24,000 nucleotides of DNA from NCBI RefSeq assembly GCF_036446775.1, contig NZ_JAZFTO010000255.1, positions 15,737 through 39,736 of the forward strand. The letters are read 5' to 3'. Shown here piece by piece: positions 3,969 to 20,433 of this stretch. Numbering within the stretch: the stretch's first letter is position 1; the number at the start of each line of letters is the position of its first letter. A program made the translations under genes and the position numbers. The notes beneath the pieces are model-generated. The model had not been told where the DNA came from. It ran no database searches and saw nothing but the letters and a program-made list of their open reading frames with translations. This DNA is from Candidatus Desulfatibia sp. Lineage in GTDB: Bacteria > Desulfobacterota > Desulfobacteria > Desulfobacterales > UBA11574.

Positions 3969-3995
3969 ATAGTACGCCTTTTGTTAAATATCAGC

Positions 3996-4186
3996 CTTGA
4001 TGATCTCGTAAAAAGTCACGAATTCAACTATAGAGGGCTAAGTAAAAAGGTTCATATACCCCCGCCAAACCTCGGCGGGATAAAAAGGCGTAATATTTTT
4101 TCAGGAACGAGGCCATACATGTAGTATGCCGAGTGTCTGCAAAAATACTACAACGCAGTAGATGGGACTTTTGACGACGCCATCAG
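3996..4186 (+). repeat. MITE-like intergenic repeat, copy A (longest copy, carries a 63-bp extra internal segment at 4096-4158)
   Basis: The core attcaactatagaGggctaagtaaaaaggttcatatacccccgccaaacctcgGcgggataaaaaggcgtaa recurs almost identically, reverse-complemented, at 16577-16700. Its left 46 bp recur at 8338-8383. The ends form an imperfect terminal inverted repeat: cTTGATGatcTCGTaAAAAGTCaC versus the reverse complement of GgGACTTTTgACGAcgcCATCAg. Confidence 0.8.
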
Positions 4187-4582
4187 CCTTATGGTTTATG
4201 CAACGTTAAGGCAAATTAAAACTATATCAAATAACGAGAATTCGGAGCAAAGTCAAACTCTTTTTGCCTTGTCTGCACAAAAAATGCACTATCCGGATGC
4301 AGGATGATCACCTTGCATAAACGAACGATATTTGTTAGCATGCAAGCCTTGGAATCTTTCTCCAACATGGCTTGCCCGGCTTGTTGGGTCGTCTTGTCCC
4401 GTCGTAGCTCAAAGAGCGAAGTCGGAAGCTGAAAGCGACCGGTCGGGTCGTAGCCGGAGGCGCAGCCTGAAGCCTAAAGGATAAACAAAATCGAGAGAAA
4501 TCAGTAACGCAGCCTAAGATGGTTCATGGATATCCGCAAACCAATAACAATTAACAGATAACGCCAGATCGGGTTTTGGTTT

Positions 4583-8337: not shown

Positions 8338-8383
8338 TTAGCCATCTATAGTTTAATTCGTGACTTTTTACGAGATCATCAAG
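8338..8383 (-). repeat. MITE-like intergenic repeat, copy C (46-bp left-end fragment)
   Basis: The reverse complement cttgatgatctcgtaaaaagtcacgaattAaactatagaTggctaa matches 3996-4041 with 2 mismatches. Similarity then stops. Confidence 0.75.
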
Positions 8384-10035: not shown

Positions 10036-10131
10036 TTTGCTGAAGGGCAAACCTTCCGAAAGGTTGGGACGCAAAGCTTCCGATCTAAGTCCGTTTTAAG
10101 CGGATAAGATAACGGGGTTGCTAAGCTAAAG
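10036..10131 (+). promoter_or_regulatory. c-di-GMP-I (GEMM-I) riboswitch aptamer
   Basis: The sequence GCUGAAGGGCAAACCUUCCGAAAGGUUGGGACGCAAAGCUUCCGAUCUAAGUCCGUUUUAAGCGGAUAAGAUAACGGGGUUGCUAAGC aligns block by block with the remembered Vibrio cholerae Vc2 aptamer. Shared blocks are GGGCAAACC, a GAAA-capped hairpin, GGGACGCAAAGC, UCCG..CUAA and ..ACGGGGUU. P3 pairs as CG-AUCU-aag-UCCG/CGGA-ua-AGAU-aa-CG. Confidence 0.85.
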
Positions 10132-10866: not shown

Positions 10867-12234
10867 GTACGAGGTCGCGAGACCGTTAGCTATTAACCTG
10901 AAAGGAGATTATTATATCAGTTACCCTTATGGATATGTAGGCAGAGGGCGGGTTCGTGTGGTAACACACGGGCTGAACTTGCCCCGACACGGTACCGAGA
11001 CGGCTCGCAGAATATGCGGGTTTTATCCAGTCAGGGGTGCTGGCCAAAGCCGCAGGCCGTAGCGTTAAGCGAATGGTGCAGCCTCGTAAGATTTGATCGG
11101 GCGGCTATAGCTGGGCCTACGGCTCGGAGAGAGTCCGATTGAGGGATAAACCCTGCAAAGCAGGGATACGCGCCGATCCTCTCTAATCAGGGAGAAGGCC
11201 GGAGCTATCAGGGAAGCAAAGGGCATAAGCACCTGGTAGGGACCCGGGGTGTCGGAGTGGCCTGGAAGTGATGACGGGCAGAACAACATAACCTGCCTTG
11301 AGCGTGGGGCCATACTTCGACCGTGTTTAGGCAGTGAGTTGAAATGCGGAACAGGGGATAGATTTGATGGTGAGGATAATGTGCGGGTTTACGGGGCCCC
11401 CGCTTTAACAAAACCCAAGCGGCAGTCGTTGGGGAACGGTGCGACAACCGGGTAAAGAACTCGAACTGTCCCGAATCATCTTCGGTTTATACACCAGTTG
11501 CATTTCTCTCTGGTAACAGCAAGAAAGCATGCGTGCTCAAGGAGCTATTAACGTAGCGGAATAAAGTTTCTGACTTGCAGTCTAAACTGTCCCATGCAGC
11601 GAAGCAGTCGCTGGATAGGAGATTCGGGGCTTTTTACGATAAGATCTATCGTGAAGATGTTGTATTGGAGGCCTGGAAGCGCGTAAAGGCCAAAAGCAGT
11701 TCTGCGCAATATGGCCTTCAAAGCGTTCGATGGGACGCATCAAGCAGCGAGTACGCGAAGTGGTAGGGCGGCGTTATAGTCTATCGCTGGAAGAGTTGAT
11801 AAAGGAACTGACACCGGCAATAAAGGGTCGGAACAATTATCACAAGGCGACCAGAGCAGTGCTCAAGCGGCTTCGCAAGCTTAATGCGTTTGTCTGTGAA
11901 CGGCTACGAATATTCCTGAAGCGGAAGTACAGTGATCAATCGAGGGGCACCTGGAGAGTCCACGACAATTTAGTCGTTCGGCTGGGATTATACCAGTTCG
12001 GTTAATCATTGTAATTCAACGACAACGGTTACTGATAAACTCATGGCCTCCGGCTCGGAGAGCTTACGGCTCGGAGAGGCAAGGTCGTCGGAGAGTCGTA
12101 CCGGGGAAAACCCGACGTCCGGTTCGACGAGGGGACTAAGGGAAGGAAGGTATGGTAGTCGGACTGAAGCCTACCGGGAAACCGGTGGAACTGCCACCGA
12201 CGCCCATAGCCACTGCACCGAGGTTCTACTCTAC
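10867..12234 (+). mobile_element. Degenerate group II intron (boundaries tentative)
   Basis: It contains remnants of an intron-encoded RT/maturase (11575-12005). Roughly 450-700 nt of GC-rich, stop-riddled, helix-rich sequence lies upstream. A domain-V-like hairpin lies at 12093-12125: GAGUCGUACCGGG-GAAAA-CCCG-AC-GUCCGGUUC, with a 2-nt AC bulge and G-U pairs. The catalytic triad reads AGU rather than AGC, and there is one U-C mismatch. The candidate 5' ends GTACG (10867) and GTGCA (11076) and the 3' end ..CTAC (12234) are guesses. Confidence 0.7.
11575..12005 (+). pseudogene. Group II intron-encoded protein remnant with the RT domain deleted (N-terminal RT0 segment joined to the maturase/X region, frameshifted)
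   Basis: ORF 11575..11766 reads LQSKLSHAAKQSLDRRFGAFYDKIYREDVVLEAWKRVKAKSSSAQ, the typical IEP N-terminus up to the ..VKANxGxxGVDG point. In another frame from about 11709, PSKRSMGRIKQRVREVVGRRYSLSLEELIKELTPAIKGRNNYHK...RLRIFLKRKY..LGLYQF is the post-RT thumb/X region. The ~250 aa in between are missing. An in-frame stop at 11554 removes the usual N-terminal leader. Confidence 0.75.
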
Positions 12235-12389: not shown

Positions 12390-12900
12390 TCATCCGTTGG
12401 TTGTGTGACATATGTGATTATTTATCCATTCTGAAAAGTTTATACGTGACATCTTTCCTGAGGCAAGCTCGAGCATGACACGCTCTTGTTCATCTACGCT
12501 GGAGATTATTTCATACCCATTCAAAAGACAAGAAACGTTTCCATAGCAGCATGCCCAACTCTTTTGTTCCCATCGACAGAGGGGTGATTCATAACCAAAG
12601 AAAAACATAGAGCAGCAGCTTTCGTAACTATATCAGGGTAAAGGTCTTTTTGATCAAATGTTTGACGAGGTTGGTTGACGGCTATTGCCAGGGCGGTTAA
12701 GAGGGCCTGGGGTCAAACCTTGATTCGTGATTAATATCATCAACAAATCATTGGTCTAATCAATATAACTATTTGCAATAAATTAACATAATGCACAATA
12801 ATCAATGATCAAGGTTTGACCCCATTCACTCACTTGTATTAAGGGGTTTTGGTGAAGCGCAGCGCAACCAAAATCCCTCTTAAATGATTTGTTAGGTCAT
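12390..12900 (-). pseudogene. doc: Doc (death-on-curing, Fic-fold) toxin pseudogene
   Basis: My reverse translation gives three pieces in different frames. (a) 12900-12825 reads ..AALHQNPLIQVSEWG. (b) 12707-12530 reads [63 protein letters not shown], with the Doc motif HxFxDGNKR present as HPSVDGNKR. (c) The C-terminal part of track ORF 12390..12608 reads [40 protein letters not shown]. There are frameshifts near 12530 and in the first 25 codons, and an insertion at 12708-12824. No antitoxin ORF lies upstream. Confidence 0.75.
12708..12824. mobile_element. 117-bp AT-rich element with 17-bp perfect terminal inverted repeats, inserted in the doc pseudogene (MITE-like)
   Basis: TGGGGTCAAACCTTGAT (12708-12724) and ATCAAGGTTTGACCCCA (12808-12824) are exact reverse complements. 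The interior is about 83 bp of AT-rich non-coding sequence. Doc homology resumes on both sides. No obvious target-site duplication. Confidence 0.55.
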
Positions 12901-16539: not shown

Positions 16540-16576
16540 AAGACTTCTCTACACAAAGTTTTTGTGATATGCAGCG

Positions 16577-16700
16577 TTGATGGCGTCGTAAAAAGTCCCA
16601 TCTATTACGCCTTTTTATCCCGACGAGGTTTGGCGGGGGTATATGAACCTTTTTACTTAGCCATCTATAGTTGAATGCGCAAAAAGTCGAATTCATCAAG
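16577..16700 (-). repeat. MITE-like intergenic repeat, copy B (lacks the 63-bp internal segment of copy A)
   Basis: The reverse complement cttgatgaattcgactttttgcgcattcaactatagatggctaagtaaaaaggttcatatacccccgccaaacctcgtcgggataaaaaggcgtaatagatgggactttttacgacgccatcaa is collinear with 3996-4186, apart from a flipped ~16-nt terminal module and the missing 4096-4158 segment. Confidence 0.8.
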
Positions 16701-16823
16701 AGCTTAGTATTTAGTGTTTTGTTTCAAATATATACTTATAGAACAGCTTGCTAAAAAACCAAAAACTAAATACAAAATACTTTCGTAAAAAAGCACAAAA
16801 AAACAAAACGGAAAGTCAAAAAA

Positions 16824-18318: not shown

Positions 18319-18357
18319 TTACATTTCACGTTTCATTTTTTACGAATTTATCAAAGT

Positions 18358-20299: not shown

Positions 20300-20334
20300 C
20301 TACCGATAAGAGCGGAAAAGGTACCGCGCTTACA

Positions 20335-20413
20335 GCCGTTTCCCTCCGTTGGCATTATCCACGTCAGGTCTTAAGGGTATTTTCTCAGCCCGGATATACG
20401 AGCACCCCTAACG
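20335..20413 (-). promoter_or_regulatory. TPP (THI-box) riboswitch aptamer
   Basis: The minus strand reads aGGGGUGCucguauauccgggCUGAGAaaauACCCuuaagACCUGAcguGGAUAAUGCCAacgGAGGGAaac. It contains the hallmark CUGAGA, ACCUGA and GGAUAAUGCC blocks, upstream of a thiamine operon. Confidence 0.9.
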
Positions 20414-20433
20414 ACTATTAATGTAATATGCTA

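Follow-up and report, generated by a model that had tools for sequence, protein, structure and literature searches.

A modular, gene-less repeat family of Desulfobacterales, very probably of non-autonomous transposons

Three repeats in a stretch of 24,000 nt from a Candidatus Desulfatibia genome (the window; G000:C255:15737-39736) very probably belong to one family of gene-less, non-autonomous transposons of the MITE superfamily that is spread through the Desulfobacterales. Its elements are small and frameless, end in terminal inverted repeats, are flanked by 6-bp target-site duplications, exist as dispersed copies and have moved recently. The genome that contains the window (G000) is a fragmented MAG of 3.67 Mb in 400 contigs with 46% G+C. 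A genome-wide BLASTN search with the three copies of the window as queries, a check proposed in an earlier note on this DNA, yielded 111 loci and thus supports the suggestion made there of a MITE-like mobile family; the copies are distributed over more than 80 contigs, each with unique flanks. Inverted termini of 19–22 nt bound each element, and interchangeable hairpin modules between these ends give rise to the different size classes. According to the mechanism that we propose, a transposase provided in trans, most likely of the DDE type, would bind the termini and make a 6-bp staggered cut. The inserted copies would decay later, either by hairpin deletion that leaves solo ends (as in copy C) or by loop inversion at the palindromic ends (as in copy B).

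Anatomy and distribution of the family

All three copies noticed earlier were recovered in the window by sequence inspection and with a repeat finder, at refined coordinates. Positions 4019-4095 pair with 16603-16679 (copy A with copy B; 77 nt, 96%, inverted), positions 4154-4185 with 16578-16609 (likewise A with B; 32 nt, 91%), and positions 3996-4041 with 8338-8383 (A with copy C; 46 nt, 96%, inverted). The true element boundaries are GATG...CATC. The ends of copy A are indeed imperfect inverted repeats, with a measured length of 22 nt instead of the roughly 24 nt given before, and the core with the CCCGCC/GGCGGG hairpin, which had been ascribed to all three copies, is shared by A and B and missing from copy C, which is a left end only. 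Copy B has the opposite orientation to copy A and is without an internal segment of about 60 nt. The neighboring genes named in the earlier note, hisI (PRA-CH), a transporter (MOT1-type) and a transglycosylase (SLT), are all present beside the copies, as are genes for a class-A PBP, TrmO and a response regulator. Copy A is located 28 bp upstream of hisI, and the spacers of A, B and C are all divergent. The individual features are listed below.

3993-3998, no strand: left copy of the target-site duplication of A (AGCCTT); the same hexamer stands at 4185-4190, and congeners have one, AGCC[C/A]T
3999-4184, + strand: copy A, a two-ended element of 186 nt, left to right; absent from the orthologous spacer of four congeners (G001-G004)
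3999-4020, + strand: left terminus of A, GATGATC-TCGTAAAAAGTC-AC; exact match to the terminus pattern
4033-4055, + strand: internal degenerate direct copy of the terminus motif, GAGGGCTAAGTAAAAAGG..., from the alignment of copies; pairs with the right terminus in the predicted fold (163-nt type)
4060-4084, + strand: optional module 1, hairpin CCCGCC-AAACCTC-GGCGGG with an A-rich tail; in A and B, not in the 163-nt subfamily
4090-4151, + strand: optional module 2, long hairpin, outer stem of 15 bp; in A, not in B; compensatory changes between subfamilies
4163-4184, - strand: right terminus of A, reading GATGGCG-TCGTCAAAAGTC-CC on this strand; one mismatch to the terminus pattern
4185-4190, no strand: right copy of the target-site duplication of A (AGCCTT); matches 3993-3998
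8338-8380, - strand: copy C, a truncated left end of 43 nt made up of the terminus and the start of the internal repeat, from comparison with G001, G002 and G004
11628-11646, - strand: degenerate terminus-like unit with two mismatches, from repeat pairs and pattern search; possibly a relic, weak
16579-16697, - strand: copy B, an element of 119 nt in the opposite orientation to A and lacking module 2; flanked by AGCGTT and AAGAGC, which no longer agree
16670-16697, - strand: hairpin form of the left-end module of copy B, loop of 8 nt flipped; ACTTTTTG versus CAAAAAGT between identical stems (compared with G000:C315:19171-19293)
18334-18352, - strand: degenerate terminus-like unit with three mismatches, from pattern search, then GAAACGTGAAA-type sequence, an order also seen in another repeat subtype; weak

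The window also holds an inverted repeat with GGGGTCAAACC (12701-12733 and 12799-12831), which resembles the repeats that flank a Y1_Tnp gene at G000:C170:12950-14010.

Throughout this genome, 31 two-ended elements of 46-193 nt were recognized, and these fall into size classes of 46-48, 60 (n = 4), 98, 112-129, 163 (n = 9) and 180-193 nt. They share a 19-nt terminus, GATG-NNN-TCGTAAAAAGTC, of which the genome contains 174 units if up to two mismatches are allowed; the exact pattern occurs 74 times and the reversed control pattern not once. Alignment of the longer copies with MAFFT revealed a common layout, in which the left terminus is followed by a spacer of about 15 nt, an internal degenerate direct copy of the terminus, a set of optional modules, and the right terminus. 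Module 1 is a GC hairpin, module 2 is a longer one (about 60 nt, outer stem of 15 bp), and modules 3 and 4 are small. A search for modules 1 and 2 outside elements of this family found none, and the possibility that they are independent mobile units was rejected because they are confined to these elements. Coding frames within the elements are solely spurious read-throughs.

The majority of the terminus units (112 of 174) lie outside recognizable two-ended elements. This share of solo units exceeds that of a textbook MITE family and counts against the explanation preferred here. About 36 units in this genome have a 28-nt hairpin form with a 10-bp stem and the loop TAAAAAGT. Arrays of G/T-rich heptamers (GTTTTAG and GTGTTTG types) usually come after it, and examples are found just upstream of the window (G000:C255:10288-10401) and at G000:C315:2133-2161. 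This form is without a duplication of its own and is apparently an end module that belongs to a different composite repeat. Further solo units are truncated left or right ends resembling copy C.

Of 41 relatives, 24 have matches to copy A, and no genome of the genus is without one. The exact 27-nt pattern of the right end occurs in at least 115 stretches of public genomes, which are named Desulfobacteraceae or Desulfobacterales MAGs; among the matches listed are Eth-SRB1, Candidatus Desulfaltia bathyphila, Candidatus Desulfatibia vada and "uncultured Desulfococcus". A single exact match to the right end comes from a short contig (CAZCPP010000593.1, 2161 nt; L049) assigned to an Anaerolineaceae MAG; misbinning is a more probable cause than presence of the family in a second phylum. 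The exact 19-nt terminus was detected in 49 of 52 genomes of the bacterial family. In a sample of 201 genomes of the class, 127 contain it, all from one order (Desulfobacterales) and with up to 201 copies; the reversed control pattern was found 0 times in every genome of both sets. Between genomes of a single genus the number of exact termini varies from 12 to 122, and in a second genus it varies from 0 to 67; such swings in copy number fit bursts. The 163-nt subfamily of the window's genome is up to 98% identical to non-orthologous copies in another genus (G012, G020), whereas their flanking genes are only 69-81% identical. The cross-genus identity might be due to recent passage of a source element between genera or to sequence constraint; judging from these comparisons, we favor transfer.

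Insertion sites, target and decay

The hisI side of copy A (400 nt) is present in all four congeners with 94-95% identity, and in each of the four the flanks of copy A abut directly in the same hisI/PBP1 spacer. Where the window reads AGCCTT, element, AGCCTT, the congeners have ...AAATATCAGCC[C/A]TATGG.... Judged from these sequences, copy A is a precise insertion with a 6-bp duplication that took place in the lineage of G000. One congener (G002) contains independent insertions of the family elsewhere in the hisI/PBP1 spacer and also in the spacer of locus C. The spacer of locus B is a hot spot of repeat turnover, in which three congeners have a different repeat and one has a truncated element. 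In the stretches from G003, G002 and G001 (L143, L144 and L145) that are orthologous to window positions 16540-16820, this different repeat is about 170 nt long and rich in CACGAAG/CTTCGTG. Further empty sites were identified for copies of G012 and G020, the loci of which are unoccupied in G000.

Target-site duplications were evaluated in a pool of the G000 elements and the elements of 115 loci from other assemblies, which comprised 80-102 distinct elements. With the ends placed at TGATG...CATCA, perfect direct repeats of 4 bp or more directly adjoin the ends in 70 of 102 distinct elements, and at most one such repeat remained when the right flank was shifted by 3, 5 or 7 bp (a shift of 2 bp is no independent control, as it catches part of the true repeat). 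With the ends at GATG...CATC, the repeat is exactly 6 bp long in 46 of 80 elements, 7 bp in seven and 5 bp in one. The outer T and A belong to the target and not to the element, because three elements with atypical outer bases, L020 (AATAAA), L053 (TGAATT) and L109 (TTCTTT), have these bases duplicated too. The logo of the target, A (63/70) A (42/70) N N T (61/70) T (67/70), corresponds to the palindrome AANNTT with TYAANNTTRA as a wider form. A perfect duplication is missing in about a third of the elements. Since the duplication has a fixed length and the target is palindromic, a dimeric enzyme that makes staggered cuts, usually one of the DDE type, would be expected; the class of the transposase and its cut-and-paste chemistry are something that we only infer.

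The target also accounts for a peculiar relation of the elements to stop codons. In G000, the upstream ORF owes its TGA stop to the element end in 14 of 174 cases, as compared to 1.45% of the available AANNTT sites (p = 3e-7), and a TAA inside the terminus serves as the stop of ten more ORFs. Likewise, 11 of 80 elements from many MAGs form a spike at the exact stop distance at which the TGA consists of the last T of the duplication and the GA of GATG; in nine of these 11 stop-codon insertions the right end points toward the gene. If a target overlaps a stop codon, its last T and the GA of GATG would form TGA, so that the stop would be rebuilt and the insertion tolerated. Many ends are situated exactly on gene 3' ends because the junction rebuilds the stop. 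On contig C92 of G000, the flanks imply that an original TAG across the target was replaced by the junction TGA, which would have left the protein unchanged.

Signs of decay are found in copies B and C. Copy B is 97% identical to the element at G000:C315:19171-19293, with the 8-nt loop inverted between the identical 10-bp stems of the left-end hairpin, and such a flip of the loop is as expected of template switching at a palindrome. At locus C, the 43-nt left end of the window takes the place of about 66 nt of unrelated spacer in the congeners. Because the congeners keep spacer sequence that is missing from the window, copy C can be read as the remnant of an insertion followed by deletion of the rest of the element together with about 60 nt of ancestral spacer. 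In micro-forms on contigs C79 and C41, the terminal CATC comes immediately after the start of the internal repeat, and these look like excisions of the whole hairpin rod. Truncated REP-like derivatives and many partial copies are known for Chunjie and QMITE2 (PMC10969869).

Placement, moving enzyme and alternative explanations

According to a simple longest-ORF gene call, by which 82% of G000 is coding, 94% of the terminus units lie outside called genes. The units are distributed over tandem, divergent and convergent spacers in numbers of 64, 34 and 15, as compared to 68, 28 and 17 expected from spacer length (p = 0.37). The placement of the copies in 5' intergenic regions that the earlier note had pointed out therefore holds for the three divergent spacers of the window; as a genome-wide preference of the family it was rejected, because the spread follows spacer length. 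The two-ended elements occupy 19 tandem, six divergent and no convergent spacers, a weak deficit. Among the cases in co-directional spacers, 30 have the left-to-right strand antisense to the neighboring genes and 13 have it in the sense direction (p = 0.014). Solo left ends immediately upstream of start codons were considered as ends of insertion sequences or as 5' signals and dismissed, the genes behind them being of the housekeeping type (mrp, pyrD, miaA, nadE); the geometry of solo left ends relative to starts (54 versus 35) is non-significant (p = 0.056).

The enzyme that moves the elements was searched for by several routes. No terminus pairs at insertion-sequence distance (0.3-6 kb) that enclose a transposase were found in G000, nor any around a transposase in the 115 loci of other MAGs, in Eth-SRB1 (170 units), or in G035 and G083; the same result was obtained for the 100 units listed of the 135 in G085. 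The inverted terminus pairs that are 0.3-6 kb apart bracket ordinary host genes, such as adenylate kinase/folC, an AraC-type regulator or an HdrA-like oxidoreductase. Conversely, seven rve, eight DDE_Tnp_1, four Y1_Tnp, and the ISNCY_1 and ISNCY_2 loci of G000 were inspected for ends of the family and have none, but other inverted repeats or no repeats at all. ISNCY elements of the ISDol1 group, which generate 6-7-bp duplications, were considered as partners and received no support from the ISNCY loci and their ends. Two elements on small contigs of their own illustrate the difference: an IS21-type element with IstA and IstB (G000:C245, 3836 nt) has the ends TGTCAGCGGCG, unlike the family terminus, and an ISNCY_2-type insertion sequence (G000:C353, 2317 nt) has 21-bp inverted repeats unrelated to the family. 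Contig ends that start with a terminus lead into element interiors only. Searches of viral contigs, which gave mostly chance matches in coding sequence and a few of these elements, and of plasmids found no partner. MAGs often lose the contigs of insertion sequences, and an autonomous partner with the same ends, although usual for a MITE, is no precondition, the Correia elements having none known.

That the three repeats are the product of a local duplication or an assembly artefact, as their presence within 24 kb of a fragmented MAG of 400 contigs might suggest, has a negligible probability: the copies with their unique flanks on more than 80 contigs, their occurrence in dozens of independent assemblies from different studies and the precisely empty sites of copy A in four congeners have already refuted it. 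It is also quite unlikely that the elements are primarily functional, with selection maintaining them as a structured RNA or as a module for protein binding or regulation (promoter, operator, mRNA stabilizer) and with mobility being secondary. Several properties would agree with such a role. The stem of module 2 contains compensatory changes between subfamilies that keep the pairing, and every imperfect position in it is a G.T/G.U pair on the left-to-right strand. As RNA, this strand has a mean folding advantage of 5.4 kcal/mol over its complement and is the more stable one in 67 of 78 distinct copies, with a modest overall excess of G.U pairs (318 versus 243) in a set of related copies that are not independent. 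The orientation bias in co-directional spacers and the near-identity of the 163-nt type across genera point in the same direction, as does the stability of copy A, folded as single-stranded DNA, against shuffles (z = -3.2), a value that is expected of nested palindromes. Against selection for a function, the interiors are interchangeable and unrelated between subfamilies, and RNAalifold found no consensus structure in a mixed alignment of 81 distinct copies; palindrome arms can also co-evolve through template switching without selection. The Rfam check recommended in the earlier note was run with Rfam 15 and identified no known structured RNA in the element, neither at the gathering score nor at E <= 10 (best sub-threshold value 16.9 bits, cut-off 37). 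Consensus scans of copies A and B for sigma-70-like promoters and terminator-like sites detected none, and no evidence was found that copy A is the source of a regulatory signal for hisI. Furthermore, the units are spread over spacer types as spacer length predicts, and copy A is missing in four congeners with the same gene order and is thus not needed there. The strand asymmetry of the hairpin is not taken as evidence of an RNA function; together with the order-wide conservation of the terminus it could reflect some added constraint beyond simple selfish spread. Elsewhere in the window, Rfam matches at the gathering score comprise a c-di-GMP-I riboswitch (10036-10125, + strand) and a TPP riboswitch (20324-20419, - strand).

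The remaining alternatives concern the identity of the mover. If the units were repetitive extragenic palindromes spread by a resident RAYT (HUH/Y1), the two-ended forms would be REP doublets. Many units are single 28-nt hairpins, inverted pairs or clusters, the motif occurs at high copy across the whole order as in long-term REP-RAYT associations, and G000 has four Y1_Tnp genes. However, the clear 6-bp target-site duplications and the palindromic target, neither of which is to our knowledge a feature of HUH-mediated single-strand transposition, render this reading very improbable. Moreover, none of the four Y1 genes in G000 has a terminus unit beside it, the Y1 gene on contig C170 being associated with yet another repeat and the RAYT-like one (G000:C15:11690-12634, 314 aa) having its own, different hairpin repeat on both sides (TTACCCA...TGGGTAA). 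The C15 gene and its hairpins represent a separate candidate REP-RAYT pair. A variant closer to the preferred transposon family, albeit an unlikely one, is that a resident, vertically inherited transposase encoded outside any element maintains the family, as a DDE-type counterpart of the REPIN-RAYT system. If true, this could explain why the 19-nt terminus has stayed intact across the order despite the turnover of interiors, why an autonomous copy is absent even from nearly closed genomes with 170 units, and also the strand-specific (G.U-only) conservation of the hairpin and the orientation bias.

Significance and comparison with known systems

Literature searches found no description of this family. 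As a gene-less transposon family it is an ordinary kind of element, and this kind is already known; the points of interest are its order-wide conserved terminus, the end that rebuilds stop codons, the near-identity of copies across genera and the missing transposase. The identity of the enzyme and the conservation of a single terminus should be of moderate interest to specialists in mobile elements, and neither alters what is known of this kind of element. For annotators of Desulfobacterales MAGs, including those of the partners of alkane- and methane-oxidizing archaea, the family explains a large share of contig breaks, as well as spurious short ORFs and spacer differences between close genomes. 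Thanks to the precise 6-bp AANNTT target and the stop-rebuilding end, recent insertions can be marked cleanly, as can horizontal exchange between genera.

Several described repeats share features with the family. The BOX elements of Streptococcus pneumoniae (boxA-boxB-boxC) likewise combine conserved end modules with variable internal ones and nest or cluster with other repeats, but their sequences are unrelated and we know of no defined target-site duplication for them. Members of the IS21 family have several transposase-binding repeats at their ends and make duplications of variable length (4-8 bp). The extra subterminal copy of the end motif in one arm of the present elements is reminiscent of this arrangement, and the duplication of 6 bp, sometimes 5 or 7 bp, is within that range. 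In contrast, the IS21-type element on C245 has other ends, and no IstA/IstB element with ends of the family was found in G000; the link to IS21 is a resemblance only. The Correia (NEMIS) elements of Neisseria, for which no cognate transposase is known to us, resemble the family in their length of about 100-200 bp, inverted ends, more than 100 copies and size variants by internal deletion, and in that they often lie beside genes and are co-transcribed. Correia elements duplicate TA and have documented sigma-70 promoters, an IHF site and RNase III cleavage sites (PMC10969869), whereas the present family duplicates 6 bp and no promoter-like site was detected inside A or B. REP, BIME and REPIN sequences are similar to it as short hairpin units that occur singly, in inverted pairs and in mosaics, in hundreds of copies that are confined to spacers and conserved across large evolutionary distances. 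Unlike in REP/RAYT systems, target-site duplications are present here and the RAYT-like genes of G000 are accompanied by other hairpins; truncated MITEs are known to mimic REPs (PMC10969869).

A further counterpart is Chunjie, a gene-less MITE of about 180-235 bp from Geobacter uraniireducens Rf4 (Chen et al., 2008), as it is summarized in PMC10969869. According to this summary, both families have conserved terminal inverted repeats together with direct repeats, dozens of full copies of varied size and many partial copies that are without an end; both are mostly intergenic, live in an anaerobic "deltaproteobacterial" host and can insert within operons without destroying them. By description, although not by terminal sequence, and as far as that summary extends, the present family is set apart from Chunjie by its 6-bp AANNTT target, its modular hairpin interiors and its spread across an entire order.
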